Positions 24,231-50,480 are shown, counted from the first letter of the stretch. The stretch: DNA of 64,000 nt from Alphaproteobacteria bacterium (GCA_050633165.1 JBOEFZ010000014.1:3655-67654), one strand, 5' to 3'. The notes: a model not told the origin generated them from the letters alone. Made by a program: numbers and translations.

Positions 24231-26189
24231 ATGACAGATACGAAAAATTTAAGTCGGGAAGAATTAGAAGCTAAGGTCGCGGAAGCCGATGCGCTCGCCG
24301 AAATGAAGTCGAATTTTTTAGCAACGATGAGCCATGAAATTCGCACGCCGATGCAGACGATTTTTGGTTTGCTTGAGCTGATTAACGATGAAAAACCGTC
24401 GGAGCGGGTGGCGGAGATGGTGGGCACGGCGCAAGGCGCGGCGGCGGGGCTCTTGGAAATTTTGGATGATGTGCTGGATCTGGCGAAGATGGATGCGGAT
24501 AAGATGGAGCTGGATGAGTTTGAGGTTCCGGTGCGGTTGCTCGTGCGCGGGCTGCTTGAGGCTTTGTCGGTTAAGGTGCACGGGATTGATATCGCGATTG
24601 AGGATGCGATTGAGCAAGATGTGCCATTTGTGGTGCAGGGGGATCCGAAGCGGTTGCGGCAGATTATTATGAATTTGTGCTCGAATGCGCTCAAATTCAC
24701 GCATGTCGGGAAGGTCACGGTGCGGGTGAGCCGCGAGGTGGAGCGCATCAGCGTGCCGGATGGCGGTGTTGGTTTGCGGTTTGAGGTGATTGATACGGGG
24801 ATCGGGATGAGTCAAGAGGTTTGTGATCGGCTCTTCCAATCCTTTACGCAGGCGGACAATTCCACGTCGCGGAAATATGGCGGGACGGGGCTTGGGCTTT
24901 CGATTTGTAAGAAGCTTGTGGAGCTTATGGGCGGTGAAATCGGGGTGAATAGCGCGGAAGGGAAGGGTTCGAATTTCTGGTTTGAAATCCCGACGCGGGA
25001 GGTTGATACCGATGCGAATACGGTGGAGCTGCCGAATTTGGACGGGGTTTCGGTGTTGTCGGTTGAGGATCATCCGTTCGGGGCGAAGGAGATTATGAAT
25101 TCCTTGCGTTCCATGGGGGCGAGTGTCGAGAGCTGCCCTACTTATGCCGAGGGGTTGAAGATGATAAAGGCGCGGCCATTTGATGTGGCGGTGATTGATC
25201 AGGGATTGCCGGATGGGCTGGGGCTGGATTTGATTAAGGAGATACGGGAGATCAGGCCGGATACGGGCTTGGTGATGTATACGGTGCGGGATGATATTGG
25301 GCTGGCGCATTCCTTGAAAGCCTTGGGCGCGACATTTTTGACCAAGCCGGCTAGTCGTGCAGGCCTTGGCGAGGCGGTGAAGGATGCGACGGATCGGATT
25401 GAGGCGAAGGAGATTAAAGGGCCGAAGCGGCTTTTGATTGCCGAGGATACGGCGAGCGTGCGGGATATTTTGGGGCGGCAGCTCGAGAAAATTGGCGCGG
25501 AGGCGGATTTTGTCGAGAATGGGCGCTTGGCGCTTGAGGCGCTTAATAGCGGAAAATACGGGATTTTGATCTCGGATTTGCATATGCCGGAGATGGATGG
25601 GTATCAGCTCGTCGAGACTATTCGCAAGAAAGAGCGTTTGGATCACACGACGCGCTTTCCGATTGTTGTTTTGACGGCGGATGTGCAGATGGGGGAGCGG
25701 GAGGTTTATATGGAGCATGGGTTTGATGAATGCTTGCTTAAGCCTGTTTCCCTTGGGCAATTTGAGCGGTTATTGGTGCGGTGGGGAATTGTCGAGAAGA
25801 AGGCAGCGGTGAAACCGGAAGAGGAGGCGGCGGGGGAAAGCGCGGGCGATGCTCCGGCGGCTGCTCAGCCGGCGATTGATAAGGAGGCGATGATCGGGTT
25901 GATGGGCGCGTTTGATGATGATGCGATTGAGATGCTGGGTATGTTTGCGGAGATGACCGCGCCATTGGTGGCGCAGATTGAAGAGCAATTGGCGGCGGGC
26001 GATTTGGCGGCACTGTCCGAGACAGGGCATAGCCTCAAAGGCGCAGCACGCTCGGCGTGTTGTCCGGTGCTGGGTGATTTATGTGCGCGGTTGCAGGACG
26101 AAGCGGCGGAAGGCGTTGATTGTGCGGATTTGGTGGCGGATATTGTTGCGGAATTTGCGCGGGTTGAGGCGGAGATTAAGGGGCTTTAA
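24231..26189 (+). CDS. hybrid sensor histidine kinase without a recognisable input domain (HisKA-HATPase-REC-REC-HPt)
   Basis: The H-box SHEIRTP starts ~30 aa from the N-terminus. N, G1 and G2 boxes are present ([27 protein letters not shown]). Two receiver domains ([20 protein letters not shown]) are followed by a C-terminal HPt ([10 protein letters not shown]). Confidence 0.9.
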
Positions 26190-26405: not shown

Positions 26406-26441
26406 ACATGTAAATATATTTCCTCTAATATATTTACATGT
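26406..26441. promoter_or_regulatory. perfect 15 bp inverted repeat with a 6 nt spacer, overlapping the start codon of the 26438 ORF
   Basis: The sequence is acatgtaaatatatt-tcctct-aatatatttacatgt. The ATG at 26438 lies inside the right arm. Confidence 0.5.
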
Positions 26442-26947
26442 CATATAGCACATATACACATGATACTAACAGCCCCCTAGAGCCTGAATACGTTCATAAC
26501 ATCGTTATTCAGGTATGCGTCCCCAACCAAGGGGAGAGCGTTTCACCTGACATGAGCGCATATGTTGTTGCATTACACTTTGATAGCTTTGAGGCTTTAA
26601 ATCAATTTTTACAGCATCCTCAACGGGAAGAAATGGAAAACTCTATACAACACTTCTCTGCAAATTCAAATGATGTTGCTTTCACCATTCAACAGGAAAG
26701 AGAGAGGGACGCACCAGAAAATAAAAACTTTTACCCGGACTCTGGCCCCGAAAGCTTTAACGAAGGAACAATTCTTGATTTTGAAACTATTTATTCGGAA
26801 TATGCACACATTTTAAATGCCACATATGAGGCTAACATTTTATCCGCAAATGTACTGGAAAAAGGTTTTAGTATAAATCCGTTAATGTGTGCCGATAATC
26901 AATCTTTGCCTGAAAATATTGCACAACTCCAATCACCGCGCCCCTAA
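26438..26947 (+). CDS. hypothetical protein (AT-rich orphan)
   Basis: 169 aa ORF. One line counts ~35% GC. I see no motif and no signal peptide. Confidence 0.45.
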   Translation: MSYSTYTHDTNSPLEPEYVHNIVIQVCVPNQGESVSPDMSAYVVALHFDSFEALNQFLQHPQREEMENSIQHFSANSNDVAFTIQQERERDAPENKNFYPDSGPESFNEGTILDFETIYSEYAHILNATYEANILSANVLEKGFSINPLMCADNQSLPENIAQLQSPRP

Positions 26948-26967: not shown

Positions 26968-27699
26968 TTAAATACAGCCCGCTTCATCGCCATCTGTATC
27001 GCCGTTATATTCGGCGTCGGGTTCGTTGATGACCATGCGGACGCGGAAGCAGACGGATCCGGAGGGGCATTGGGTTAGGGCGGTTGTCGCGCTATCTAAA
27101 TCAATGGCAGAGAGGCTCGCATCAATGACGTCGGCTTCGCATTCATCGAATTGTTCGTCGAGGCGTTCGAGGGCGGAGAGGATGAAGGCGTCGGATTTGG
27201 AGCTTTCTATCCAAAAATAAACGCCGTCTGTGCCGTTGTAATATTGCCATGGCTCGAACAAATCAGGGGTTGGCGGCATGAATTTTCCGGTGCTGCCGCC
27301 GAAGAGTTTCGTGTGATTAACCGCTGCGCCGTCGGGGTTACCGGGGCAACGGATGCCGGAAACGTTGCGGTCACCCGATTGCGCGGGGGTTGCGGCGGAG
27401 AAATGCGTGGAATTGGGATTAATAGGGAATTGCGTATTGGCGTCGGGGTCTGAACCACTGCCGGAGGTGTCGATCGTGCTATCGCCTTGGGGGTAGAGAA
27501 GGAGGCATTCCTGGATTGCGGAGCGGATTGTATCAACCTGCCCCTGCAAGTCCGTTGCGGTTTTGAAGGTGTTTTGAGAGGAGGTTTGCTGGGAGGATGG
27601 CTCCATGAAGCTAACGGTTAGGGCCGCGAGCAACGCAATGGCGATCAAAATATAAACAAGCGCGCTACCATTTTGAGAGTTGGAAGCGCGCTTTGTCAT
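26968..27699 (-). CDS. pilin-like protein B (large, Cys-rich, non-canonical class III-like signal)
   Basis: A short basic leader is followed by NG|SALVYILIAIALLAALTVSF with no Glu at +5. The mature part is ~230 aa with 6 Cys. It is the last gene of the filament locus. Confidence 0.6.
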   Translation of the reverse strand: MTKRASNSQNGSALVYILIAIALLAALTVSFMEPSSQQTSSQNTFKTATDLQGQVDTIRSAIQECLLLYPQGDSTIDTSGSGSDPDANTQFPINPNSTHFSAATPAQSGDRNVSGIRCPGNPDGAAVNHTKLFGGSTGKFMPPTPDLFEPWQYYNGTDGVYFWIESSKSDAFILSALERLDEQFDECEADVIDASLSAIDLDSATTALTQCPSGSVCFRVRMVINEPDAEYNGDTDGDEAGCI

Positions 27700-27726
27700 T
27701 ATTATATCCTAGGTTCTAGGCTGAAT

Positions 27727-28467
27727 TTATGATTCGTAGATCACGTGGTAGTAAACATATTCACCACCGTTATTCTGGAAACATCCGAAGGCTTGTCCAT
27801 CAAGCGCGCCACCAGTTACAGCATCTCCACCGGTTCCGATTGTGATATCATTGGTTGTTGCAAAAGAGATACCGTTATCAAGAATGCGGTTATACCCTTC
27901 TGTAGTGTCATCCGTTCCAGAGACATCCGTTCCGGTATCAGGGATACCGGAAATTCCAAGTTCAGTATTGATGCGTGAGCAAACAGCTTGTTTAATGCCG
28001 GGCAGGAAGGCAATGATTTCGTTTCCTGTTGCCGCACCGGAAGATGTAAGACCGACGTTAACAATTTCAAAGTCACCGTTAAATGTCCATGTCCCCTGTG
28101 CGCCATTTGCCATCACATCGGCAATTGCAGGCGCATATGTTGCATTACCACCAGACGGATGGAACACACAGTCTGTACCGGAGGTTGAACAGTTACCGAA
28201 GTCAGATGGTGGATTAAACTCCATGTCTGTTGGGTCGATCCCTTTGGAAACCTGCATCCGGATCAAAGAGGTTCTTATTCCTGTTGGATACTGCGTAATT
28301 GCCGCCGTATTCACAAGGTTTGTTTCATCGTTGGCATCACCGCCACCGGAGCGTGTTGATGATGTTACCGCGTATGAAAGCGCGGCAAAAAGAGCCACAG
28401 CGATAAGAATAAGGAACAGGACATTCCCGCTTTCATTTTTTCTTGATTTTGTTTGTATAGGTTTCAC
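27727..28467 (-). CDS. pilin-like protein A (large, non-canonical class III-like signal)
   Basis: The leader MKPIQTKSRKNESG is followed by NVLFLILIAVALFAALSYAV with no Glu at +5. There are 4 Cys. The start is a GTG with AAGGGG 8 nt upstream. Confidence 0.65.
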   Translation of the reverse strand: MKPIQTKSRKNESGNVLFLILIAVALFAALSYAVTSSTRSGGGDANDETNLVNTAAITQYPTGIRTSLIRMQVSKGIDPTDMEFNPPSDFGNCSTSGTDCVFHPSGGNATYAPAIADVMANGAQGTWTFNGDFEIVNVGLTSSGAATGNEIIAFLPGIKQAVCSRINTELGISGIPDTGTDVSGTDDTTEGYNRILDNGISFATTNDITIGTGGDAVTGGALDGQAFGCFQNNGGEYVYYHVIYES

Positions 28468-28531
28468 TTGAACTACCCCTTAAATTTAATGTGGAATGAA
28501 TTTTCTCCAAAAATACCGAATCAGTATAACA

Positions 28532-29113
28532 TCACTTCGGCTTCACGGAAATAGTATTTATTTTCAATGTTGTACTTAATGGCTTGCCCTCGCATTCCCG
28601 CCCTACGCAAAGGCTTTTTATATCAATGCGCCAACCATCTCCACCGTTTTGAACATGGCCGATTGCTTCGCGGAATTGCCCGAATGTATTGGTTGAACTG
28701 GCGGTCATAGAGATGGCGGTGCCGGAAGCTTTTATATCTACGCCCTGATAAATATCTTTCATACGCTCGGCGAACTTCTTTAAATCGTTTGGCTTAACAG
28801 CCTGATTTACAATTTTCGGGACAGAGGGTTTGATCGCTTCGGCTTCCTGAAGCTCTGTGCGTAACTGCGTTAAAGATTGGAGATTTACAACCGTGAACAG
28901 GCCAACAGCAGCAGCCCCCATCCACACGACGCCGGCGATGACCAACATTGTCTGACTGGCATTTTGCGGCATTTTTTCGAGGAAATGGTTTAAATCCTCG
29001 GCTGCACTGGCGTTTGTTAGTTTATTAAGCGACCGTGGGTCAAAATCTTTGATCGCATTTTTAAATGCTGCGATGATTTGTTTGAATTGATTATTTTTCA
29101 TCCCTGCCCCCAT
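28532..29113 (-). CDS. bitopic inner-membrane assembly protein, GspM/PilO-like by architecture
   Basis: A ~60 aa cytoplasmic N-terminus, one TM helix (MLVIAGVVWMGAAAVGLFTVV), a coiled segment and a ~90 aa periplasmic domain. The start overlaps the upstream stop (TAATG). Confidence 0.45.
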   Translation of the reverse strand: MGAGMKNNQFKQIIAAFKNAIKDFDPRSLNKLTNASAAEDLNHFLEKMPQNASQTMLVIAGVVWMGAAAVGLFTVVNLQSLTQLRTELQEAEAIKPSVPKIVNQAVKPNDLKKFAERMKDIYQGVDIKASGTAISMTASSTNTFGQFREAIGHVQNGGDGWRIDIKSLCVGRECEGKPLSTTLKINTISVKPK

Positions 29114-30078
29114 TACCTTGACCCGACAACGCGTACGCGTCCATCACGGGCAGTATTTTCTTCATCGACGCGCGCAGGCAGGCGCTCCATAATCGGCTGT
29201 ACGAAGGCGGGTGGGATAAGAGCCTCCCATACGACTTTATTGCCATCGACATGATATTTCACAAGCGTACCGTCAACGCGCGAGAAGACGTCGAGCAATT
29301 CCTGCACACGCACCATGTGTTTGATGGAATCATTTTTCATGATGTTATTAGCATTTGTCATGAGCTCCATTGCCGCTCGGTCGGTTTGTTTTTGCACTTT
29401 TTCAAGGTCGCGTTTAATCATATTGACGGACAAAAAGCTGAAGACAAGGATGCAGGCCGCGATAATACCAACCAACAGGCCGGATACGACCAGCATTTTT
29501 GCTGTCGCGCGTGTGAGTTGCTCGGTTTTCAGGTTGCGGTTACGCCATGGAACCACATCCGCCATATCAGGATTAATGGTTACGAAATTCGCGTCCATGC
29601 TCTGGATACGCGGTAAGATAGTACGGGATGCGCCGAGATAGACCTGCATCCGTTTTGTATCGGGGTCCCAACGCAGGGCGGAGGCTGTTCCCTCTTGTTC
29701 ATACAGGTAGACGGTTTCCTGATCCCAATATTCGCTATTCCCCGGAAGGGCGGCGGCGAGCGGGCACCAGCTATCGGGGTTGGAAGACATGGCGGCGGAA
29801 GGGCATGCGAGATACCAGATTTTGTTTTCATCAACGGCATAGCAATAGTGCACTTTTTCCGTGCCGCAAGCCTGGGAAGCGGCATTCCATACGGCTTCGT
29901 CTTCTGTGCCGGGGATGTGCGGGATGCTGCCGCCGATTACTTCTTGCGGTAGGTAGGGCTTTAAATCCTCGACAAATGCACCGCCTTCGCCGGCCAGAAC
30001 ATCGGAGATGCCGGCGGCGGGCTTTGCCCCTGTGCGCTTGTTTGGCGCATCCATTTCGTTTGATTTTCGAATTGCCAC
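29113..30078 (-). CDS. bitopic inner-membrane assembly protein, GspL / PilM-PilN-fusion-like by architecture
   Basis: A ~195 aa cytoplasmic domain, one TM helix (MLVVSGLLVGIIAACILVFSFL) and a ~100 aa periplasmic domain. The start is GTG at 30078, or alternatively ATG at 30054. Confidence 0.45.
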   Translation of the reverse strand: MAIRKSNEMDAPNKRTGAKPAAGISDVLAGEGGAFVEDLKPYLPQEVIGGSIPHIPGTEDEAVWNAASQACGTEKVHYCYAVDENKIWYLACPSAAMSSNPDSWCPLAAALPGNSEYWDQETVYLYEQEGTASALRWDPDTKRMQVYLGASRTILPRIQSMDANFVTINPDMADVVPWRNRNLKTEQLTRATAKMLVVSGLLVGIIAACILVFSFLSVNMIKRDLEKVQKQTDRAAMELMTNANNIMKNDSIKHMVRVQELLDVFSRVDGTLVKYHVDGNKVVWEALIPPAFVQPIMERLPARVDEENTARDGRVRVVGSR

Positions 30079-30136
30079 AGTGAATGTAACCCTTTTCCCG
30101 AATTCTACCTTAAGTATCGCTTAGAACCAAGCGCGT

Positions 30137-31357
30137 TTAGACTGCCCCTTGCATGAGACCGCCCATCATTGAATCCATGCTCATATTCATGACCGTCAGG
30201 GCGTAGATCGCGGAACCGAAAGCGATCACAAGGAAGACGCCGGTTAATGCGAAGGCGAGCCAGACAATCAACGTGTGTTTCGTTTTTGCCGCCTGTGCGC
30301 GCATCTCAGTAATCGACTCCATGATTGTAGCAACTTGATCGAGATCAGACAAGCTTGCAAGCTCGAGGCGTTCATTGCGGCGTAAGGGTTCGCGGTCAAG
30401 AGCGGAACCGAGGCTGACCCCGCGGCTTAGATCATCAAGCGAGTCGTTCCAATACATTGCCACATCCGGCGCGCCGGAGGCTTCGGCGGATTGTTGAAGC
30501 GTGTCGTTAATCGGTACCATACCGCGGATCATACGCGCGGCAGCGGACATGGAGTCAGAGAACGCCAAGTCACGCATATAGCCGCCAATGAGCGGGATTT
30601 TTCGTACAAGGCGTGCGGTTGGCCAATCCTTTTTCCCGCGATTAACCCAAAAGGAAAATACGCACCATGCCATAAAGACACCGGAGGCGACGGAAACGAA
30701 GATGAGGGTGTCCCATGTTAGTTCCAGATTACCAACAACGCGGTCGAATTGCTCTAACGCCTCGGGGTCGGTTGGGGGGTTATCGCGGAACCAGCCCAAA
30801 ATCATATCCTTACCCGCCCAAAGCGAGGAAACGATAGAGAACACATCAAAGGCCAGCCAGCCCATTGTTCCCATGATCGCGCGGGCGTTCTTTTTCTTTT
30901 GTGTGATGGAGTGGATGGCATGCGGGATACCTTCGACAAGGCGGTTTGCACGTTCCGATCCGGCGAGGATGGCGATTGTGCCGTGATCGAAGATATTGAG
31001 CGCCTTTAGCGCGTCGATAACGCCCAAACCACGGGCAAGAGCCTCACGCGCGGGGGCGAGGATGTTTTGGCGGCGGGGGTTATCTTCGGCCTGAATAATT
31101 TTCCAAAAGGCCACACCGGGGGAGGTAGAGCCAGAGCGGAATTGGATACCGCGCAGGAGCTGTACCTGCCACCATGTGGAGCGGGCGAGGAGGCGTTCAA
31201 TCGTGGAGCGGGCATGCGGGCGGATACTGAGCGCGAAGCCACCTTTTTTCGCAACAGCAGCGCGGACATCATCAACAGAAGGCAGGTAGAAGGATTCCGT
31301 GACCTTCTTTGGTCCGGAGCGGGTTTCATAAGCAATTTCAGCAACCCATTGCTGCAT
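30137..31357 (-). CDS. type IV filament platform protein (GspF/PilC family)
   Basis: ~406 aa with a duplicated cytoplasmic helical domain plus 3 TM helices, placed directly after the ATPase. The ATG at 31357 has GGAAG 5 nt upstream. Confidence 0.8.
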   Translation of the reverse strand: MQQWVAEIAYETRSGPKKVTESFYLPSVDDVRAAVAKKGGFALSIRPHARSTIERLLARSTWWQVQLLRGIQFRSGSTSPGVAFWKIIQAEDNPRRQNILAPAREALARGLGVIDALKALNIFDHGTIAILAGSERANRLVEGIPHAIHSITQKKKNARAIMGTMGWLAFDVFSIVSSLWAGKDMILGWFRDNPPTDPEALEQFDRVVGNLELTWDTLIFVSVASGVFMAWCVFSFWVNRGKKDWPTARLVRKIPLIGGYMRDLAFSDSMSAAARMIRGMVPINDTLQQSAEASGAPDVAMYWNDSLDDLSRGVSLGSALDREPLRRNERLELASLSDLDQVATIMESITEMRAQAAKTKHTLIVWLAFALTGVFLVIAFGSAIYALTVMNMSMDSMMGGLMQGAV

Positions 31358-31367
31358 TTTCACTTCC

Positions 31368-31447
31368 TTTTCCGTTTTCAGAGCGTTGCGGCGCTCCTCA
31401 AATACGTTTTGTATTCTTCCTCGCTTGCGCCTCCTGAAAACGGAAAA
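31368..31447. repeat. 80 bp inverted-repeat element (14 bp arms) immediately upstream of the platform gene Shine-Dalgarno
   Basis: The arms are ttttccgttttcag (31368-31381) and ctgaaaacggaaaa (31434-31447). Confidence 0.6.
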
Positions 31448-31544
31448 TCAAGCGAAAATAATATCTCTCAATACGCCTCGCTCCTCCTGCTTTATTTCCC
31501 TTGGGTCAAAAGAAAAGCGAAACGCAAAAAACTGTTTAATTATT

Positions 31545-31566
31545 AAGGCCGTGGATTTACGGCCTT
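31545..31566 (-). terminator. possible terminator hairpin after the ATPase gene
   Basis: The hairpin aaggccgt-6 nt-acggcctt lies ~50 nt downstream of the ATPase stop. The T-run is weak and displaced. Confidence 0.35.
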
Positions 31567-31618
31567 ATGATGACAGGATACTCAAAAATAGTTACAAAAT
31601 CGTATATTTACATACATC

Positions 31619-33349
31619 TTAATCTTCGAGATATGACAGCGCGGATTTGGGGTCTATGAGGCCGCTTAGGACGAGGTCAATGAGGCCGTCGCGGCGGGAA
31701 TGGACGATGACGCCCTCTTCGTGGATGATGTCGTTGACGTTGCCGATGAGGGCTTGGTAGATGTCGTTACGTTGCGCGGGACCAAGGGTGATGAGGAGCG
31801 CGTCGAGGAGCAAGGTTCGGCCGGAAATTCCGGTGCGGTTACAAAGGTCACAGCCGGATGTGTTATGGCGGCGGATTTTGGCCTTTGTATCGATGCCGAG
31901 GCGTTCAATTTCATGTGCCTCGACTGCGTTATCGGCGGTGTCTTTGTGGGCGCAGCCTTGGCATAGGGTTCGCACGAGGCGCTGGTTCATGATGGCTTTG
32001 ACTTGTTGCGCGAGGGTGAAGGTCGAGGAGCGTTCCCGCGATGATGGCATGAGAGAGCGCAGGCGCTCGAAGGTTTGGAGCGCGGTATCGGCGTGAATGG
32101 TGGAAATCACGGTGTGACCGGATTCGGCGGCTTTTAGCGAGGTTTCAACGGTGTCGGAATCGCGCATCTCCCCGATGATGATGTAATCGGGATCATGACG
32201 CATCGAGGCACGGATGAGATCGCCGAAGCTTCCGCCATCCATACCGGGGCGGACTTGCCATTGTGTGGCGTAGCGAAGCTCGTATTCAATCGGGTCTTCG
32301 ATCGTCAGGACGTGTTTGCGGCGGCGGTCGATTTGCTGCACGCAGGCATAAAGCGTTGTTGTTTTACCAGAGCCCGTTGGACCGGAGAGGATGATCATCC
32401 CCCCTCCCCCTTTGATCTCGGGCGAAAGAAGGCGGGCGAGGTGGTCGCCGACATCTTCGTGGCGGCGGAAAAGTTCGTCGAAGCCTTTTAGCGCGGCGCG
32501 GTCAAGGAGACGCAGGGTGAGTTTTTCACCGTCTTGGGCTTGTGGCCCTGCGGCGACACGGACATCGATGGCGCGGCCTTGCCATATGAAACCAAAACGC
32601 CCGTCTTTTGGTGTGACGCGATCCCCGAAGTTGAGGCCGGCATCCCGTTTGATGAGTGTTGTGAGACGCGCCATGGCATCGGCGGGGAGGAGATGCATGG
32701 GTAGCATATCGCCATCGATGCGGTATTGGATCCAGTTGGGGGCTTCGGGGTTATTATCCTGCACGATGTGGATATCGGAGGCGCGCATTTGCAGGCTTTC
32801 GGCGAGCATATCGCGTAAGAACTGGTTGAGGAGCAGGCCGTTATCACTATCGACCAGCCATTGGGCGAGGGTTTTTTCGCAGCGATCGGCGGAGAGGTCG
32901 TGCACGCTACGCAGCGTTTCGGTTAATTCTTTACGATCCCAAACCTCGACCTCGATGCGATCAACATGCAGGCCGCTTCGTTGCGCCGTGCTCATGAGGG
33001 ATTCGATCTGGCGGTCATTGAGGTCGTGCAGCGGGGCGATGCGCAAGATGCCGTCGCTCAGGCCGATGAGGTGGATGCTGAGCGGTAGCCATGCTTGCAC
33101 GGGGAGGATTGATCTGAGCTGATCCCCTGTTGCGCGGTCTTTGACGGCGTCATCTTCGGCTTCGGATTGGCTGACCGCGCCGGCCATATCGAGGAGTTGT
33201 TCGGTGGAGCGCGCCAATCCTTGCTCCATCATCATGGTGCGTTCACGTTGCACCATATCGAGGTAACGCTCGCGCCCTTCTGTGGAGCGGGCTTTTAGCG
33301 CGGATTTTGGCGCTTTTTTCTTTTCTGCGGTTTCTTCGGCCATGATCAA
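31619..33349 (-). CDS. type IV filament assembly ATPase (GspE/PilB family)
   Basis: Walker A (GPTGSGKTTT), Asp box (TIEDPIEYEL), Walker B (DYIIIGEMRD) and His box (GHTVISTIHA) are present. So is a tetracysteine CQGC...CDLC motif and a T2SSE_N-like N-domain. Confidence 0.95.
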   Translation of the reverse strand: MIMAEETAEKKKAPKSALKARSTEGRERYLDMVQRERTMMMEQGLARSTEQLLDMAGAVSQSEAEDDAVKDRATGDQLRSILPVQAWLPLSIHLIGLSDGILRIAPLHDLNDRQIESLMSTAQRSGLHVDRIEVEVWDRKELTETLRSVHDLSADRCEKTLAQWLVDSDNGLLLNQFLRDMLAESLQMRASDIHIVQDNNPEAPNWIQYRIDGDMLPMHLLPADAMARLTTLIKRDAGLNFGDRVTPKDGRFGFIWQGRAIDVRVAAGPQAQDGEKLTLRLLDRAALKGFDELFRRHEDVGDHLARLLSPEIKGGGGMIILSGPTGSGKTTTLYACVQQIDRRRKHVLTIEDPIEYELRYATQWQVRPGMDGGSFGDLIRASMRHDPDYIIIGEMRDSDTVETSLKAAESGHTVISTIHADTALQTFERLRSLMPSSRERSSTFTLAQQVKAIMNQRLVRTLCQGCAHKDTADNAVEAHEIERLGIDTKAKIRRHNTSGCDLCNRTGISGRTLLLDALLITLGPAQRNDIYQALIGNVNDIIHEEGVIVHSRRDGLIDLVLSGLIDPKSALSYLED

Positions 33350-33352
33350 GTT

Positions 33353-34930
33353 TTATGTGTCGCCGGACGACCCACCTCCTGATGCGCTTGTACGGTTGGC
33401 GGAAGAGAGGGAACGATCGAAGAGGAGGAGGATGCGTTGCCCTTGATTTAAAAATTCGATCCCGTTTTTCTGGATTACGACGAACCATGGCACGCCGCCA
33501 AGAACGATTTCCTCGCGGTCAAAGACGAGGCGGCTTCCGCCCGGGCCATTGATGATGGCGCGGGAGGGGGAGAATGAGGTGATTTTATAGCCATCGAGTG
33601 TGCCGCCCGCATTTACCCCTGCGGAGAGGCTGAGGCTATTGGCTTTGGCGGCTTGTTTTTGGCTTTCTTCGATATTATTTGGATCAACACCAGAGGATAA
33701 GGCGGTGGAGGGTGCATCGCCGTTGTTCGTCATGATGGCGTTGCCGTCGCTTAGGACAATGGCTTTTTGGTCTTTGGAGACCGAGGTGCTGGCTGTGCCG
33801 CGAATGGGGAGAACGAGAACGCCGCGTGCGCCGTCATGCAGGATTTGCACATCATCGAGGATAGAGCCAACGCGGGTTGGTGACCATGTGATTGTGAGGG
33901 GGCATGCCTCAACCGGTGCGAGAATTGTGCCTTCGGCGCAGCCCTCTTCCTTGAACCCGATACCGTTATCGGACGAAGACATGCGGATATTTTTAAGGGT
34001 CACAGGCGCATCTCCCGCATTGACGAGGGATACGGTCAGGGCAGAGGCGGTTTCAATGCCAGAGCCGAAATCAACATCGCGTTGGGAGGATACGAGTAGA
34101 CCTTTGCCCGGAACGGCGCGGGGGAAAACTTCGGCTTCGGAGACGTTGCCGGGGCTATACTCACCTTTTAACGGGATGCTTGTTAATCCGGCGGGGCCGT
34201 CGTGTTTTACGACCAAAACGCCGGAGGAGCGCCCTTCTAGCTCTGGTGACCATTTGACGCTGGCGATACAGGCTTGTCCGGCTTTTAAAGAGGCGCATTC
34301 GGTGTTGAGGCTATAGCCTGAGCCGTCACCGGTATCGAGATAGATGTCGGAAATGTTGAGGGTTACGGAGGTGATATTGCGCAAAACGATAGGTTCGATG
34401 AGCGTTTGGCTGGCGCTTAATGTGCCGAAATCGAGGTCACTAGGGATGGCTTCGATATCGGTGGTGAGCTTGCCGCCGCCATCGCCGGATTCGACAACGC
34501 CGGAGATTGTGTTTGTGACAAGGCGTGTGCGGCCGCTATGCGCCATGAGCATTTCGACGCGCCATGGGCCGGGCTGTAGGCCTTTTACCGAAAGAGCAAT
34601 GGCGCATTCCGCGCCGGAGGGAAGCGCTTCCGCTTCACATTGGTTTGATGCGACTTCCGCCGTTACGGTTGAGGACGGGTAGAGCTGGATTAATCCCATT
34701 TCAACGGGCTTACCACCGTCATTGCGGAAAAGGACAACGACTTGTGCGCTTGCGCCGATCGGGATGCTGCCGCCGTCAACTTCGCTTTCTGCGGGGACGA
34801 GACCAGCGCCGGTTGCACCGCCGCCGCCACCTGTGCCGGGGTCATTGAAGCCCGCATATTGTGCATATGCCTGCCCGCCCCAGAGCAGGGCAGCAAGTGC
34901 GAAGAGCGGCAATAGCAATTTTTTAAACAT
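33353..34930 (-). CDS. exported protein with three Ig-like repeats and a C-terminal PilP / GspC-HR-like domain
   Basis: The signal peptide reads ...LLWGGQAYA|Q. Three ~100 aa repeats each carry a C-x(8-11)-C pair. The C-terminus (GYKITSFSPSRAIINGPGGSRLVFDREEIVLGGVPWFVVIQKNGIEF) follows the PilP/HR pattern. I prefer the ATG at 34930. Confidence 0.55.
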   Translation of the reverse strand: MFKKLLLPLFALAALLWGGQAYAQYAGFNDPGTGGGGGATGAGLVPAESEVDGGSIPIGASAQVVVLFRNDGGKPVEMGLIQLYPSSTVTAEVASNQCEAEALPSGAECAIALSVKGLQPGPWRVEMLMAHSGRTRLVTNTISGVVESGDGGGKLTTDIEAIPSDLDFGTLSASQTLIEPIVLRNITSVTLNISDIYLDTGDGSGYSLNTECASLKAGQACIASVKWSPELEGRSSGVLVVKHDGPAGLTSIPLKGEYSPGNVSEAEVFPRAVPGKGLLVSSQRDVDFGSGIETASALTVSLVNAGDAPVTLKNIRMSSSDNGIGFKEEGCAEGTILAPVEACPLTITWSPTRVGSILDDVQILHDGARGVLVLPIRGTASTSVSKDQKAIVLSDGNAIMTNNGDAPSTALSSGVDPNNIEESQKQAAKANSLSLSAGVNAGGTLDGYKITSFSPSRAIINGPGGSRLVFDREEIVLGGVPWFVVIQKNGIEFLNQGQRILLLFDRSLSSANRTSASGGGSSGDT

Positions 34931-35079
34931 GTGCGAATACACGACCGATATAAATAAATACGAATCAGAACGACCCATATGTATAGTATATCAGAAAAGC
35001 TGTGGATTAAATATCAAAAATGCAGTTTTTGATTTTAAGGCGTGAACGCATAAAAGGCATAAAAAATGCCCAAAGCGAA

Positions 35080-36612
35080 TCAGTTGGCAGGGTTCAGCAG
35101 ATCAAACGGGACGCTTGTCTTTGGGAACCCTTCATCCGCCAAGGGCGCATCGGATTTACCGGAGCCTATATGGCGTCCATTACTATCCACGACAACGGAT
35201 TTGCGCTTTGCCTGCGCGGGCTGCGCCTCGGCGGTGTAGACGATGACGCGGGGTTTGAGGAGGAAGACGAGTTCCGTGTTTGCCGTTACCGCGCCGCGAC
35301 TAGTGGGGAAAAGCGCGTCTTGGAAGCCAGGGCCGCTATCATCATAAGTATCGGATTCGCGCACCAAGCCACCGATCAGGAGCGAATCACCGGGGCGGAT
35401 GCGGATTTGTGTCGAAAGCTCGCGCTCCGTTGTTTCGGGGAGGCGGAGCGTTGTGCCGTCAGCATCGAAATCTTCGAAGCGGCGGAATTCGTCAAGGTCG
35501 ATCTCAATATCGCCGTAAATCGTGGCGTTATCCCATGAGCTGGCGATTGTGAGGGTGAAGCCGGTATCCACCGAATCGGTTTCCGTGGTGGTGGTGGTCT
35601 CGCCATCCTCGACCGAGCGGGTGAGAGAGGAAACGTAGTTGATCGTGTCCGCCGCGCGCAACGAAGCCTCCGCGCCGGAAAGAACGGTAATTTGCGGCTG
35701 CGAGATTGTTTTTACCGCGCCGAATGTCGATAGGAACTCCAACACATTTCCGGCGGAATAGGATTTGTCATTCAAGGATGGGATTCCAATGCTGATCGGG
35801 GAGCTATCCGTTGCGCCGATCGCGCCGGGGATATCGATAACCGCCCCGCCAATTTTACCAAAATCCTCCCAATTGATGCCCATGTTATTGGCAGTATCCA
35901 GATTCACTTCCCAGATATAAACCTCGAATATAATCAAGGCCGTATTGGCGCGGATGCGTTGCAGATAACGCTCGGCCATTTTTGCGGTGCGGTTTGTGGC
36001 CTCATATATAATGGTGCGTGTTGCCTCATCAACAATCGGACTACTGCCCGTAATTCCGGCGATTCCGGAGGCCACCGCGCTCACCAGATTATTATCACCG
36101 CCAACGGGAGGAACCGCCACGGTAAAGGTCTGGACATCCTTGATCACCAGAAGGTTATCCTCAAAGGCGCAGTAAAGATCAGCAAGGCTACAGACACGGC
36201 GCACAACCTCATCGAGCGGGCCGCGAAGATTCGCAACCGTGATGGTGCGGGTCATGCCTTCGTTGGTTTCGAAGGCCAGCGGGATTTCGTAATCTGCCAA
36301 AATAAGTTGCAGCGCGCCGGCGAGTGTTTCCGAGCGCAGCTCAAACGGGCCGACCTCCGCCGTTGGCAAGGGGCTCGAATCAAGCGTCTCAGGGACGAGG
36401 ACATCACTGCCCAAGGGTAGGTAAATCACGCTATCGGGGCGTTCATTCACTGCCTCGGGGCGTTGATCAGCCATAGTTGGGGAGGGAATATTTACATTCC
36501 GCGAGCCGGGCACAGTTGCCTGCGCGCAGCCAAACAGGGCGAACGCAGCCGTCAGCAGCAGCAAAACCTTTGCCGCATTATTATAATGGCTATGCACTCC
36601 GCCGATTATCAT
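35080..36612 (-). CDS. secretin (GspD/PilQ superfamily) with a lipobox-like signal, as in type IVb secretins
   Basis: The C-terminal secretin core is present (IRIRPGDSLLIGGLVRESD....TELVFLLKPRVI). The N-terminus reads LLLLTAAFALFGC. Confidence 0.9.
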   Translation of the reverse strand: MIIGGVHSHYNNAAKVLLLLTAAFALFGCAQATVPGSRNVNIPSPTMADQRPEAVNERPDSVIYLPLGSDVLVPETLDSSPLPTAEVGPFELRSETLAGALQLILADYEIPLAFETNEGMTRTITVANLRGPLDEVVRRVCSLADLYCAFEDNLLVIKDVQTFTVAVPPVGGDNNLVSAVASGIAGITGSSPIVDEATRTIIYEATNRTAKMAERYLQRIRANTALIIFEVYIWEVNLDTANNMGINWEDFGKIGGAVIDIPGAIGATDSSPISIGIPSLNDKSYSAGNVLEFLSTFGAVKTISQPQITVLSGAEASLRAADTINYVSSLTRSVEDGETTTTTETDSVDTGFTLTIASSWDNATIYGDIEIDLDEFRRFEDFDADGTTLRLPETTERELSTQIRIRPGDSLLIGGLVRESDTYDDSGPGFQDALFPTSRGAVTANTELVFLLKPRVIVYTAEAQPAQAKRKSVVVDSNGRHIGSGKSDAPLADEGFPKTSVPFDLLNPAN

Positions 36613-36661
36613 TGATATTTCAAGACCTTAGATCAGATTCAAAATTTTGAAAGCGAGGCAC

Positions 36662-37045
36662 TTACCGAGAAGAGAGTTTCAAGGCACGACTCACCGTTCC
36701 TGTTAGTCTATCGCGTTGAACGGGTTTCATCAAGACGGCAGCGACTCCCCACTTGTTTGCTTCTGTGAGTAAGTCGGGATTTTGGTCGCCGGTGACAAGG
36801 ATTACGGGGGCTTCGTTGCCTTCGCCGCGAATATGTTTTACGAATTCGAACCCGTCGATTGGCTCCATCCGGATATCGACAATTGCCATATCAATGGTGT
36901 GATCCATCTTCTCTAAGGCTTCGCCGCCGTCGGAGGCTTCGATAATTTCGTACTCGCTGCCTTCTTCGTCTTTTAGGAATTTGACGATCTGCATGCGGAC
37001 GAACGCGTTGTCTTCTACGACCATGATACGGGCGTTATTTGCCAT
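36662..37045 (-). CDS. single-domain response regulator (CheY-like receiver), first gene of the filament operon
   Basis: Receiver motifs are present: VVEDN, the phospho-acceptor AIVDIRMEPIDG, LVTG and KP. The start is uncertain: ATG at 37045 is preferred and the maximal ORF runs to 37081. Confidence 0.85.
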   Translation of the reverse strand: MANNARIMVVEDNAFVRMQIVKFLKDEEGSEYEIIEASDGGEALEKMDHTIDMAIVDIRMEPIDGFEFVKHIRGEGNEAPVILVTGDQNPDLLTEANKWGVAAVLMKPVQRDRLTGTVSRALKLSSR

Positions 37046-37154
37046 GTTGTGTGGTAACCCTACTAATTTTTCCCTCATCACTATAGTGTAATTTAGAAAT
37101 ATTAAATAATGTAAAATTTTAAAAAGTATTTTATCGAATTTATGTGATTTTTTT

Positions 37155-37661
37155 ATGGTTTATTTTTTAATCCTTATATTAGGCGCGGCAGCGGCGGTTT
37201 TGCTTGTTTTGAGCGTGATTGATTTGCGGATTCGGTTGTTGCCGAATGTGTGGAATGCGGCATTGGCGGGATTGGCCGTTGTGTTTCATGGTATGGGCGG
37301 GTTTGCGGTTTTATCCCCCTTTGATATGGCGATGGGCGCGGCGATGGGAGGTGGATTATTGTGGGTGATTCGGTTTGGGGCGAATTGGTATTACGGGCAA
37401 GATGCGCTTGGCCTTGGGGATGTGAAATTGATGGCGGCGGCGGGGCTTTGGCTGGGGGGGCATGATGTGCTTTCGGCGCTTATTGTCGGGGCATTGGCGG
37501 GGATTGTGCATGGTGGGGGCGTGCTAATCGCTCATAAGATCAAGCATACGATGATGCCACCGCTCTCGCATTTTTCCATCCCTGCGGGTCCGGGGTTTTG
37601 CTTTGGTATTTTTGCGATTGGGGCTTGGGTTTATGCGCCGTTTATAAGCGGCATGTTTTAA
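37155..37661 (+). CDS. A24-family prepilin peptidase, short form without the N-terminal methyltransferase/zinc region
   Basis: 168 aa and polytopic. Both catalytic Asp motifs are present (SVIDLRIRLLPN and LGLGDVKLMAAAG). It is transcribed divergently from the filament operon. Confidence 0.85.
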   Translation: MVYFLILILGAAAAVLLVLSVIDLRIRLLPNVWNAALAGLAVVFHGMGGFAVLSPFDMAMGAAMGGGLLWVIRFGANWYYGQDALGLGDVKLMAAAGLWLGGHDVLSALIVGALAGIVHGGGVLIAHKIKHTMMPPLSHFSIPAGPGFCFGIFAIGAWVYAPFISGMF

Positions 37662-37732: not shown

Positions 37733-38650
37733 ATGGATGATTTAAAGCATCTTTTGGGGATTGATGAATTAGACGCGGGGCAGATTGACCAGATTTTGGA
37801 TCGGGCAGCGTATTACGCGGAAGGGCTGTCCCATGGGAAATGGGATCATCAGCGCCTTGGCGGGAAGGTGATATTGCACCTGTTTTTCGAGGATTCGACT
37901 CGGACATTGACGAGCTTCGAGATGGCGGCGAAGCGATTGGGGGCGGAGGTTATCCGGTGGAATCCGTTGACGAGCTCGCTATCGAAGGGGGAGAATTTTA
38001 CCGATACGGTGGATACGTTGGCGGCGATGCGTCCCGATGCGATTGTCATCCGGCATTCGGAATATGGCGCGCCGAAATTTGTGGCGAGCCGTGTGGGGTG
38101 TCCGGTCATTAATGGTGGCGATAGCTGGCGCGAGCATCCGACGCAGGCTTTGCTTGATGCGCTGACGATTCAGCAGCATTTTGACACGCTTGCGGGGCTT
38201 ACGGTGACGATTATCGGGGATATCGCGCATAGCCGTGTGGCTAGCTCGAATATGCAGCTCCTGACCAAGATGGGGGCGAAGGTACGGGCGATTGCGCCGG
38301 ATGTTTTGATGCCGGATAAGTTAGTGGTTGATAGTGTGGAGAAGTTTAGCTCATTGGATGAGGGGTTGCCAGGGAGTGATGTTGTGATGACCATTCGCCT
38401 GCAAAAGGAGCGGATGGATACGGCGTTGATTACCTCGGATGCGGCGTATTTTAATGAGTTTGGTGTGACGCTTGCGGCGCTCGATAAGCATTGCCCCAAG
38501 GCGGTTGTGATGGACCCCGGGCCATTGGTGCGCGGGGTGCAGATGGAGGATAAGGTTGCCGAAGACCCGACGCGGAGTTTGATTTTGAAGCAGGTAGCCA
38601 ATGGCATTCCGACACGGATGGCGGTGCTTGATATGTTGGTGGGTGGGTAG
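37733..38650 (+). CDS. pyrB: aspartate carbamoyltransferase catalytic subunit
   Basis: Family motifs are present: FFE.STRT..SFE, HPTQALLD and HSRV. Confidence 0.95.
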   Translation: MDDLKHLLGIDELDAGQIDQILDRAAYYAEGLSHGKWDHQRLGGKVILHLFFEDSTRTLTSFEMAAKRLGAEVIRWNPLTSSLSKGENFTDTVDTLAAMRPDAIVIRHSEYGAPKFVASRVGCPVINGGDSWREHPTQALLDALTIQQHFDTLAGLTVTIIGDIAHSRVASSNMQLLTKMGAKVRAIAPDVLMPDKLVVDSVEKFSSLDEGLPGSDVVMTIRLQKERMDTALITSDAAYFNEFGVTLAALDKHCPKAVVMDPGPLVRGVQMEDKVAEDPTRSLILKQVANGIPTRMAVLDMLVGG

Positions 38651-38688
38651 ACGTTGGATGATTGGAATGTTGGAATTTAGATACAATA

Positions 38689-38760
38689 TCATCCCGAGCG
38701 AAGTCGAGGGACCTGACGCATGTCGGCTTCCTCCACTCACTTACGCTCGGTCGGAATGAC
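38689..38760. repeat. MITE-like palindromic repeat (tcatcccgagcg...cgctcggtcggaatga)
   Basis: The termini are imperfectly inverted, with a 3 nt indel. It is related in style to the cgtcattgcgag family. Confidence 0.4.
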
Positions 38761-38777
38761 ATAGAAGGTAGCCTTTA

Positions 38778-39365
38778 ATGAGCAACGTGATTTTAACATT
38801 TGCACTTGCCTATCTGATTGGCTCGATTCCGTTTGGGTTTCTTTTAACCAAGTTTTTTGCCAAGCAAGATATTCGCGATATTGGATCGGGTAATATCGGG
38901 GCGACGAATGTTTTGCGGACAGGGAATAAGGCGCTGGCGGCCTTGACCTTGATTTTAGATGGCGGAAAAGGTGCGTTTGCAGTTTTCATCTTGCCGTTTC
39001 TGCTGCCTTTTGGTGTTTCACCGCTTGCTATTGGATTGTTTGCGATGATCGGGCATTGCTTCCCCATTTGGTTGAAGTTTAAGGGTGGTAAGGGCGTTGC
39101 GACGAGCCTTGGGGTATTGCTCGCGGCGGCTCCTTGGGTTGGGTTGGCGGCTTGCGGAGCGTGGCTCGCGAGCGCATTTTTGTTTCGGATTTCATCGCTG
39201 GCGGCGTTGGTGGCGATTGGGTTGGCGCCTTTGTTTGCGTTCTTTATTTATGGGGCGGTTCCGGCGGGGATTTGTGCGGTGATTGCGGCGCTTGTCTTTT
39301 GGCGGCACAAGGATAATATTGCGCGGCTTTTGAAGGGTGAAGAGCCGAAGATTGGGAAGAAATGA
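38778..39365 (+). CDS. plsY: glycerol-3-phosphate acyltransferase PlsY
   Basis: Family motifs are present: YLIGSIPFG, GSGN.GATNV.R and F.GGKGVAT. Confidence 0.93.
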   Translation: MSNVILTFALAYLIGSIPFGFLLTKFFAKQDIRDIGSGNIGATNVLRTGNKALAALTLILDGGKGAFAVFILPFLLPFGVSPLAIGLFAMIGHCFPIWLKFKGGKGVATSLGVLLAAAPWVGLAACGAWLASAFLFRISSLAALVAIGLAPLFAFFIYGAVPAGICAVIAALVFWRHKDNIARLLKGEEPKIGKK

Positions 39366-39373
39366 AAAAAGGG

Positions 39374-39462
39374 AAAACCACCAAGACACCAAGGCGCCAA
39401 GTTTAAAAATGATGCCTGCGGCGCTTTTTCTTGGTGGCTTTGTGCCTTGATGGTTTAAAAAA
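39374..39462. repeat. complete word-repeat hairpin (8 nt words: ccaccaag/acaccaag/gcgccaag) with the TGCCTGCGGCGCT box in its loop
   Basis: The right arm is cttggtgg/ctttgtgc/cttgatgg. The box lies at 39413-39425. Confidence 0.8.
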
Positions 39463-39467
39463 TAACG

Positions 39468-40604: not shown

Positions 40605-40608
40605 TTTC

Positions 40609-50102: not shown

Positions 50103-50480
50103 CTACCCTTTATCTTCGCCAAGATGGCGGTTAATGGTTTCCATGAAAGAGCCGACGGATATCGGTTTGGAGATATAATCTTCGCACCCGCCCTCACGGA
50201 TTTTTTGCTCATCGCCCTTCATCGCGAACGCAGTCACGGCGATAACGGGGATGGGCTTTAGCTCCTCATCAGCCTTTAATTGCTTGGTCAAATCAAGGCC
50301 GGAAATTTCGGGCAATTGGATATCCATGAGGATTAAGTCGGGTTTATGCTCCCGCGCGAGGGAGAGGACATTTGTGCCGTCAAAGGCCTTGATCGTGTCG
50401 ATGCCGTGCGCCTCCAACAAATCATGAAACAGCTTCATGTTTAATTCGTTATCTTCGACGATTAGAACAGTTTTTGACAT
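50103..50480 (-). CDS. divK: single-domain response regulator DivK
   Basis: The 125 aa sequence ([17 protein letters not shown]......[15 protein letters not shown]...[11 protein letters not shown]) is typical of DivK and sits upstream of pleD. Confidence 0.88.

Follow-up and report, generated by a model that had tools for sequence, protein, structure and literature searches.

What kind of machine is encoded by a compact set of envelope genes that comprises a secretin, an assembly ATPase, a platform protein, pilin-like proteins and a prepilin peptidase, but fits none of the textbook classes of type IV filaments? This question is raised by a locus at positions 26968-37661 of a 64,000-nt stretch of DNA from an alphaproteobacterium (GCA_050633165.1 JBOEFZ010000014.1:3655-67654), which is called the window in the following and whose coordinates are counted from its first letter. 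We propose that the locus codes for a complete machine of the type IV filament kind that belongs to a distinct, uncharacterised lineage, is fixed in Micavibrio-type predators and probably builds a fibre for contact with prey, and we put the probability of this reading at roughly 0.6. That the machine is a distinct one can be said with good confidence. Given such a machine, an adhesive fibre is somewhat favoured as its product, and a role in secretion is rather unlikely. Outside these predators, the lineage is found mainly on mobile elements.

Gene content of the locus

Ten open reading frames (ORFs) make up the locus, of which nine are closely packed between 37081 and 26968 on the minus strand and one is divergent on the plus strand (37155-37661). 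A first-pass annotation, made from the sequence alone, had described nine co-oriented genes plus a divergent peptidase, and all ten ORFs are present where it had placed them. Five of the ten proteins carry "hypothetical" as their sole annotation. The genes are listed here from the head of the operon to its end, with the one large gap in its place, followed by the peptidase gene and a convergent kinase gene that is absent from the earlier inventory (aa, amino acids):

36662..37081, minus strand: receiver, a single-domain response regulator and the first gene of the operon (Pfam Response_reg, 79.4 bits)
35080..36612, minus strand: secretin, a lipoprotein of 510 aa, outer-membrane channel (Pfam Secretin, 68.3 bits)
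33353..34978, minus strand: X, an exported periplasmic protein of 541 aa with immunoglobulin (Ig) repeats (ASH/HYDIN Ig and choice-of-anchor-D matches)
31619..33349, minus strand: assembly ATPase, GspE/PilB type, carrying a tetracysteine Zn motif (T2SSE, 264 bits)
31364..31618, minus strand: gap of 255 bp between the ATPase and platform genes with a GC stem-loop and a T-run (sequence reading)
30137..31363, minus strand: platform protein of the inner membrane, GspF/PilC superfamily, highly divergent (T2SSF, 24.6 bits, and family profile against PilC in the PDB)
29113..30078, minus strand: L, a bitopic protein, presumed component of the assembly platform (topology, AlphaFold2 model)
28532..29113, minus strand: M, a small bitopic protein (topology, TAATG coupling to L)
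27727..28467, minus strand: P1, a pilin-like protein, probable major subunit (conserved N-terminus, AlphaFold2 model, transcript level)
26968..27699, minus strand: P2, a second pilin-like protein (N-terminus related to P1, GspG and GspK)
37155..37661, plus strand: A24 prepilin peptidase of 168 aa in divergent orientation (Peptidase_A24, 54.3 bits)
24231..26189, plus strand: soluble, convergent hybrid histidine kinase with the domains HisKA-HATPase-REC-Hpt (Pfam)

The receiver that heads the operon has a readable acidic pair, D68, T96 and K118, so that this assignment of the first-pass annotation stands. The convergent hybrid kinase is the probable partner of the receiver.

Conservation in Micavibrio-type genomes

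The ATPase has an identical counterpart in an alphaproteobacterial metagenome-assembled genome, and the best 120 relatives, which share 80% identity or more with it, bear the labels Micavibrio, Alphaproteobacteria or "Bdellovibrionales". A synteny scan with one genome per GTDB species returned 32 loci with an ATPase 61-83% identical, all of them of the Micavibrio type, and the following matches fall to 38% or less. The order receiver, secretin, X, ATPase, platform, L, M, P1, P2 is unchanged in these 32 genomes wherever the contig extends, and the divergent peptidase, the convergent kinase and the asd and pyrB flanks are equally kept: the peptidase adjoins the locus in 24 loci, a receiver orthologue occurs in all 28 loci that cover its position and the kinase is syntenic in every locus reaching that far. 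The gene-order search that had been suggested with the first-pass annotation thus recovers the same order in 32 species-level genomes, and therefore the locus cannot be regarded as a chance assembly. Identity to the window proteins amounts to 60-83% for the ATPase, 63-85% for the platform, 47-68% for L, 27-57% for M, 35-52% for P1 and 32-61% for P2. The GC content of the locus (0.48-0.57) is similar to that of its flanks, on which the first-pass annotation had based its view of a resident locus. Since the synteny extends throughout the Micavibrio-type genomes, we agree that the locus is resident and vertically inherited.

The locus is also found, in the same arrangement, in the cultured Micavibrio aeruginosavorus, where it corresponds in strain ARL-13 to GMV_1930 (P2) through GMV_1939 (peptidase), the kinase being GMV_1929. 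In the same organism, genuine Tad genes including a peptidase of their own form a separate locus (GMV_527-540), and there are separate type IVa pilus (T4aP) genes with two PilT, a long PilD, PilQ, PilB and PilC (GMV_1530-1544). As both sets have their own peptidases, the locus described here is a third filament system with a third dedicated peptidase.

ATPase, platform protein and secretin

In the ATPase, Walker A, Asp box, Walker B and His box as well as a CQGC...CDLC motif are all readable, and together with the T2SSE match they bear out the earlier assignment to the GspE/PilB type with four boxes and a CxxC...CxxC motif. The curated NCBIfam models stay far under their cut-offs, with 238 bits for GspE (cut-off 630) and 224 bits for PilB (cut-off 676), and the TadA-family model gives 61 bits. 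Compared with proteins in the PDB, the ATPase scores 187 bits to EpsE, 163 to PilF, 150 to PilB and 89 to BfpD. Its N-terminal ~170 aa are specific to the clade described below and not common to canonical GspE/PilB proteins, and Pfam gave no match to an MshEN domain. In the NCBI annotation the gene starts with the ATG at 33343.

For the platform protein, the GspF/PilC identity claimed in the first-pass annotation holds, although its Pfam support is weaker than stated there: the T2SSF match of 24.6 bits lies under the Pfam gathering cut-off of 25.2, and the NCBIfam GspF model gives 21 bits against a cut-off of 424. However, the family profile matches Myxococcus xanthus PilC in the PDB (E = 9e-5), and phmmer with PulF reaches the Micavibrio platform orthologues with E-values of up to 8.5e-6 and at most 24.5 bits. 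Because Pfam alone is insufficient, we accept the protein as GspF/PilC type on these two matches. With Klebsiella PulF as the query, the platforms of Omnitrophota, Planctomycetota and Clostridioides score 136-276 bits, so that the Micavibrio platform is an outlier, and the platforms of the relatives in the wider clade pass Pfam T2SSF.

The secretin has the lipobox LFGC, and a lipobox is present in at least 19 of 28 orthologues, in line with the lipobox-like signal read earlier. Its NCBIfam scores are 97.6 bits for MshL (cut-off 250), 79.8 for the type IVB PilN (288), 47 for GspD (351) and 29 for PilQ (284).

The Ig-repeat protein X

X carries a Sec signal peptide ending in AYA before Q, two stretches each of ASH/HYDIN Ig and choice-of-anchor-D domains, and a conserved beta-rich C-terminal domain of ~66 aa. 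The protein probably begins 16 codons further downstream, at a Met (MFKKLLL...). The family profile finds a counterpart between secretin and ATPase in the mobile-element relatives. Export and Ig repeats, both claimed in the first-pass annotation, are supported by the signal peptide and by profiles, but the likeness of the C-terminus to the homology region (HR) of PilP/GspC is confirmed neither by profile nor by fold. Profiles of the whole protein and of the C-terminal domain gave nothing meaningful against the PDB, and Pfam on every family member returned only noise for that domain. The GspC-type matches, to XpsN (E = 0.05) and, in one relative, to T2SSC (E = 0.009), are both sub-threshold. 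We propose that X links the inner-membrane platform to the secretin.

P1, P2 and the prepilin peptidase

P1 and P2 are both ~245 aa long and have leaders of 11-14 residues and a hydrophobic helix of 21 residues without any acidic residue. The N-terminus of P1 reads E-x-G and then NVLFLILIAVALFAALSYAVT, with Leu at position +5, and 75 sequences, elsewhere ~50% identical, agree in all of its first 22 residues. In P2, the Gly is followed by SALVYILIAIALLAALT, with Tyr at +5, and six Cys are invariant. The first-pass annotation was thus right that neither protein has Glu5, and Glu at +5 is equally absent from the pilin-like proteins examined across the wider clade. A salt bridge between Glu5 and the N-terminal amine is considered central to the extraction and packing of pilins.

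The N-termini of P1 and P2 are related to each other (hhalign 94.7%, E = 6e-8, 38 columns), whereas their globular parts are unrelated. Compared with alignments built from genuine GspG and GspK sequences of other loci, the Gly of P2 falls on the cleavage-site Gly (GspG 78%, E = 1.7e-5; GspK 64%), and P1 aligns weakly in the same register (18%, E = 1.4e-3). In the AlphaFold2 model of P1 (predicted local distance difference test 83.9, predicted template modelling score 0.76), a hydrophobic helix at the N-terminus is followed, after a Gly-rich break, by a second helix of 30 residues and a beta-sheet, and the whole has a lollipop shape; its top two Foldseek matches in the PDB are type IV pilins, at non-significant E-values. 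A Foldseek comparison of this model with viral structures gave nothing. No Pfam pilin domain was detected in P1 or P2 (the Pfam matches of P2 are at chance level), PulG finds pseudopilins in other loci and none at this locus, and PHROGs returned nothing for platform, L, M, P1, P2 or peptidase. Judging from their N-termini, P1 and P2 are very probably pilin-like subunits and substrates of the adjoining peptidase.

No further ORF with a class-III-type signal is present in the 64-kb window, which agrees with the earlier statement that there are just two pilin-like genes and no minor-pilin set. Likewise, the locus was said to lack a second ATPase of the PilT type, and no second T2SSE-type ATPase occurs in the whole window either. 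The peptidase matches Peptidase_A24 over residues 12-120 and has both Asp motifs, but no N-terminal extension or methyltransferase region, just as the first-pass annotation described this protein of 168 aa. With such a short peptidase lacking the methyltransferase domain, the pilins are presumably unmethylated.

L and M

The genes of L and M overlap as TAATG, and their translational coupling had been read correctly. L consists of a conserved cytoplasmic domain of ~190 aa, a transmembrane (TM) helix, a long helix and a small periplasmic domain, and M has two conserved periplasmic Cys. Neither protein has a Pfam, NCBIfam or PDB family match (the Pfam matches of M are at chance level), Pfam on all L and M orthologues gave noise only, the family profiles of L, M, P1 and P2 found nothing in the PDB at E up to 10, and hhalign detected no relation between L and M. 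The L family counts 1241 database proteins, the best 120 of which are all unnamed or hypothetical and without Pfam match. In the AlphaFold2 model of L the C-terminal half is confident, with the TM helix, a 40-residue helix and a beta-beta-alpha-beta-beta unit, and the N-terminal domain is poor. The periplasmic domains of PilN, PilO and GspM have the order alpha-beta-beta-alpha-beta-beta. In the model, the periplasmic part of L reads in the same order and resembles them, which is a likeness and not a test; Foldseek with the L model found nothing significant in the PDB.

The labels GspL-like, GspM-like and HR-like given in the first-pass annotation are thus based on topology and sub-threshold matches and find no confirmation by profile or fold, and the flavour of a type II secretion system (T2SS) that was drawn from them is without homology support. 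With Klebsiella PulL, PulM and PulC as queries, not even other T2SS loci yielded a homologue; as these queries miss genuine T2SS homologues, their negative results for L, M and the HR are uninformative.

Relatives on conjugative and plasmid-like elements

An exhaustive HMMER search with the ATPase over 1.84 billion representatives gave a graded series of relatives, P0363 with 47% and P0362 with 45% identity and then many with 30-39%, whose alignments span the whole protein and take in the N-terminal 170 residues. None of them attains the GspE or PilB cut-off except one tandem fusion. In a neighbour-joining (NJ) tree of 149 ATPases, composed of the best matches to the query and context-verified references of T2SS and type IV pili (T4P), the window ATPase groups with P0362 and P0363 within a subclade with P0367 and P0370 (each in 60 of 60 bootstraps). 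The enclosing clade of ~97 representatives includes ATPases of Methylibium and Rhodoferax and others embedded in type IV secretion systems (T4SS), and all T2SS and T4P references fall outside it (60/60). The first-pass annotation had named nesting within a well-characterised clade as the outcome that would speak against it; instead, the ATPase nests in an uncharacterised one. Several ATPase relatives of ~1000 aa (P0379, P0381, P0383, P0387, P0390-P0393 and others) consist of two full GspE/PilB-type units in tandem.

The surroundings of these relatives are as follows:

L084: secretin, A24 peptidase of 163 aa, X, ATPase, platform, proteins of 341, 175, 249 and 195 aa, then a Peptidase_S74 protein of 704 aa
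L085: module set between VirB4/VirB8/VirB9 and TrbI/VirB11/coupling-protein genes of a conjugative T4SS
L086: plasmid-like contig with Rep3 and DnaB; module and an S74 protein of 1037 aa
L087 and L088: conjugative plasmids carrying the module
L089: module beside IcmT, DotD, TraI and DotB-type genes; plasmid of the Dot/Icm conjugation type
L090: module, then a protein of 790 aa
L083: secretin, X, ATPase and platform; the contig ends with an L-like N-terminus
L082: no more than secretin, X and ATPase

Family profiles built from the Micavibrio proteins detect all parts of the module in L084 (hmmsearch; L 6e-68, M 2e-27, P1 2e-38, P2 9e-17, X 1e-49, platform 1e-153), and those in L085 and L086 with weaker, still significant values. 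Homologues of X, platform, L, M and the pilin-like proteins are found in L085, L086, L087, L088 and L089, and in L084 the short peptidase also stands next to the module. The pilin-like proteins of the mobile elements (~15, plus two S74 fibre proteins) have a short charged leader, a Gly, ~20 hydrophobic residues and no Glu5. Among 72,556 plasmids, only two carry recognisable relatives, both conjugative: Methylibium petroleiphilum RPME01 and, through its ATPase, Rhodoferax ferrireducens T118. Both show the same gene order, with L, M and the pilin-like genes labelled "hypothetical". The phage collection contained no platform homologue.

A very large protein follows the module in several of these elements (L084:16062-18176, L086:15911-19024, L088:16893-20042, L090:5797-8169). 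Those of L084 and L086 combine a Peptidase_S74 domain, known as a phage tail-spike chaperone, with a pilin-type N-terminus, and in L088 a gene for a "tail fiber assembly protein" comes after the large protein. Such large proteins resemble tip adhesins of a phage-fibre kind joined to a pilin anchor. Furthermore, in the relative set in a conjugative T4SS (L085:17947-19518), ASH/HYDIN Ig repeats of the X type are fused to a TrbI/VirB10 domain, which hints at periplasmic scaffolding common to the pilus module and the T4SS. The closest relative outside Micavibrio in the tree, L082:5193-9662 (ATPase 45%), has secretin, an X of 214 aa and ATPase amid housekeeping genes. Since the genes for platform, L, M and the pilin-like proteins do not adjoin them, this system is either split or decayed.

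Expression in M. aeruginosavorus

For M. aeruginosavorus ARL-13, gene expression indices (GEI) from RNA-seq of the attack and attachment phases are published (PMC3189940, supplement 4); their column order was deduced by matching against Table 2 of the same paper. The values for attack and attachment phase are 9.9 and 53.8 for P1, 10.8 and 9.5 for L, 2.8 and 9.5 for X, 1.8 and 5.7 for the secretin, 3.7 and 5.1 for the platform, 1.8 and 4.1 for P2, 2.6 and 3.8 for M, 0.8 and 3.2 for the ATPase, 0 and 2.7 for the receiver and 0 and 1.0 for the peptidase (PMC3189940). P1 is thus the most abundant transcript of the locus by a large lead, which fits a major structural subunit, and we regard it as the probable one.

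A model for the filament

P1 and P2, with their conserved Gly, hydrophobic helix and missing Glu5, would be inserted into the inner membrane through a class-III-type N-terminus. The short A24 peptidase would then cleave them after the Gly without N-methylation. A hexameric Zn-finger GspE-like ATPase may polymerise the subunits with the help of the divergent platform, L and M, with P1, which has the highest transcript level and the invariant N-terminus, as the putative major subunit. The fibre would leave the cell through the lipoprotein secretin, to which X may bridge the platform, and the soluble hybrid kinase with its Hpt domain could, together with the receiver, gate expression or activity. 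Most likely, the fibre would be extracellular and mediate cell-cell contact, i.e. attachment to prey. The lineage may have begun as a "mating or adhesion" pilus of mobile elements that was domesticated by the predator lineage. A still more specific scenario, in which an unrecognised filament lineage with unmethylated, Glu5-less pilins arose on conjugative or plasmid-like elements with tail-fibre pilin-fusion tips, was captured by an ancestor of Micavibrio and now serves the phosphorelay-controlled seizing and holding of prey, is put forward only tentatively.

An extracellular adhesive pilus is favoured for these reasons. The sister modules lie within conjugation gene sets and are accompanied by tail-fibre-like proteins with pilin N-termini; tip adhesins are useful only on a fibre that reaches another cell; and the secretin fits best to pilus models (MshL, PilN) and not to GspD.

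Comparison with known classes and alternative explanations

As stated in the first-pass annotation, no textbook class fits, be it T2SS, T4aP, type IVb pili (T4bP) of the R64/Bfp kind, mannose-sensitive haemagglutinin (MSH) pili or Tad, and all curated NCBIfam models remain far under cut-off. With Tad the locus shares the short A24 peptidase without methyltransferase domain, but its ATPase is not TadA/CpaF (61 versus 238 bits), a single platform gene replaces TadB and TadC, and neither TadZ nor, in the window, a Flp-like ORF is present. In the survey of the type IV filament superfamily by Denise et al., Micavibrio is not mentioned and 884 systems were left "generic" (PMC6668835). The models used there demand a recognisable pilin (PMC6668835), which the present lineage lacks.

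The main rival explanation is a divergent T2SS, in which P1 and P2 would make up a short endopilus in the periplasm, by which folded hydrolases are driven through the secretin during feeding. We consider this unlikely, but several features speak for it: the tetracysteine ATPase is closest to GspE/EpsE and its Zn-finger motif is typical of GspE, the window holds no retraction ATPase, a small M-type protein comes after a bitopic one of the fused L type, the N-terminus of P2 is GspK-like and without Glu5, X has its sub-threshold GspC-type matches, and the locus rises modestly in the attachment phase and was plausibly counted among the genes of a published "functional T2SS lacking GspC, G, H, K". 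However, the secretin is short and a lipoprotein, with 47 bits to GspD against 98 to MshL, the platform is barely recognised as GspF, L and M gave no detectable homology to GspL and GspM in comparisons that also miss genuine T2SS homologues, and X is a soluble Sec-exported protein and not a bitopic GspC with a PDZ domain. GspG-J pseudopilins are missing, and with them the set of five pseudopilins and any pseudopilin with Glu5. Moreover, relatives that lie in conjugation and plasmid settings and have fibre-like pilin fusions are ill-suited to a periplasmic piston. That the locus is instead an ordinary described class, either type IVb (R64/Tcp/Bfp) or MSH, and odd through divergence alone, we regard as very unlikely. 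It is true that the lipoprotein secretin, the missing retraction ATPase and the large pilin-like proteins recall the type IVb systems of R64 and PAPI-1, and so do the order of secretin, one or two periplasmic proteins, ATPase, platform and pilins (pilN-O-P-Q-R-S) and the relatives on conjugative elements, one of them of the Dot/Icm type, that end in an adhesin with a pilin N-terminus like PilV. Yet, with the Pil proteins of an IncI-gamma/K1 plasmid standing in for R64 (AP005147), PilQ reaches only 100 bits, over one third of the ATPase, and BfpD in the PDB gives 89, versus ~190-206 for GspE. Family hidden Markov models and hhalign found no link of L, M, P1, P2, X or platform to the IncI PilM, N, O, P, R, S or V. 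The PilS and PilV of IncI have Trp after the Gly as well as Glu5, whereas P1 and P2 lack both Glu5 and the long leader of the T4bP type, and the locus here is chromosomal, kept across the order and under two-component control. As for MSH, MshL is the best-scoring secretin model (98 bits), but below its cut-off of 250, and MshEN, MshA-D pilins with Glu5 and MshM/MshN are all missing and the gene order is another.

A competence pilus that imports prey DNA would be suggested by dprA and topA ~2-3 kb past the peptidase (window 39468-43155) in a conserved neighbourhood, but pyrB and plsY intervene, the window has neither comEA nor comEC, and M. aeruginosavorus possesses the usual machine for DNA uptake separately, as a T4aP set with PilT. 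As the relatives of the locus also stand in conjugation and not in competence contexts, this idea is most improbable. We attach just as little weight to the notion that P1 and P2 are bitopic accessory proteins and no pilins, with the fibre subunit encoded elsewhere or no fibre at all. Such a view could draw on the missing Pfam pilin domain and Glu5 and on the non-significant Foldseek matches, but it would have to explain why the invariant Gly at -1 and the helix are common to two otherwise unrelated proteins and to several pilin-like proteins in each relative, why the N-termini align in register with GspG, why a dedicated peptidase adjoins and why P1 is the top transcript.

Against our own reading of a distinct lineage with an adhesive fibre, a number of points have to be counted. 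Both the fibre and the cleavage of P1 and P2 are predicted from the genes, and the absence of Glu5 is atypical among bacterial pilins. The sole long Foldseek matches of the P1 model in the PDB, Clostridioides difficile PilA1 and Salmonella Typhi PilS, are not significant (E = 0.8 and 1.8). The ATPase gives its best scores with GspE, and the tree that places all T2SS and T4P references outside its clade is an NJ tree only, from which references for MSH, Tcp/Bfp and Tad are missing. A gene for a large adhesin is absent from the Micavibrio locus itself, and a transfer from mobile elements to the chromosome, rather than the reverse, is read from the nesting alone. Finally, the locus is modestly up in the attachment (feeding) phase alongside Sec, Tat and the type I secretion system (PMC3189940). 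The same paper leaves the locus undescribed, but speaks of a "functional type II secretion system" without GspC, G, H and K (PMC3189940), among whose genes the locus was plausibly counted.

Neighbouring genes and other features of the window

Beyond the peptidase lie pyrB, plsY, dprA and topA (window 37733-43155), and this neighbourhood including dprA is kept in the Micavibrio loci L001 and L081. The closeness of dprA to the pilus locus may be a coincidence. Two more receiver-containing genes are located 11-13 kb off the locus, for a regulator of 475 aa (window 48666-50093) and a single receiver of 125 aa (50103-50480, minus strand). Between the kinase and P2, an ORF of 169 aa on the plus strand (26438-26947) has no Pfam match and no homologue in 33 related loci; it was dropped as a component of the system because no related locus has a homologue, and is probably not a gene or else strain-specific.

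The gap of 255 bp between ATPase and platform compares with a few tens of bases in other genomes. Within window 31364-31618, the stem-loop GGCCGTAAATCCACGGCC is followed by a T-run, which may form an internal terminator or attenuator that splits or attenuates the operon in this genome only. Rfam and tRNA scans of the window gave no matches. The GC skew is positive in all 2-kb bins of the plus strand over window 1-64000 (0.005-0.34), and the cumulative skew climbs without a turn; therefore the window lies inside one replichore, with the pilus operon probably on the lagging strand.

Meaning for predators and mobile elements

We know of no account of the means by which epibiotic predators, Micavibrio among them, attach to their prey and remain on it. 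As the locus is present in every Micavibrio-type genome sampled and is expressed in the sole strain with RNA-seq data, it bears on this question of prey attachment. The analysis also corrects the published reading as a T2SS with gaps in M. aeruginosavorus. If P1 forms a fibre, bacteria would have a type IV filament that lacks the Glu5 salt bridge, which makes the role of Glu5 testable. Moreover, the mobile-element relatives point to a second, unrecognised pilus family that is associated with conjugation and has tips like phage fibres, and such pili could affect the range of recipients in plasmid transfer.

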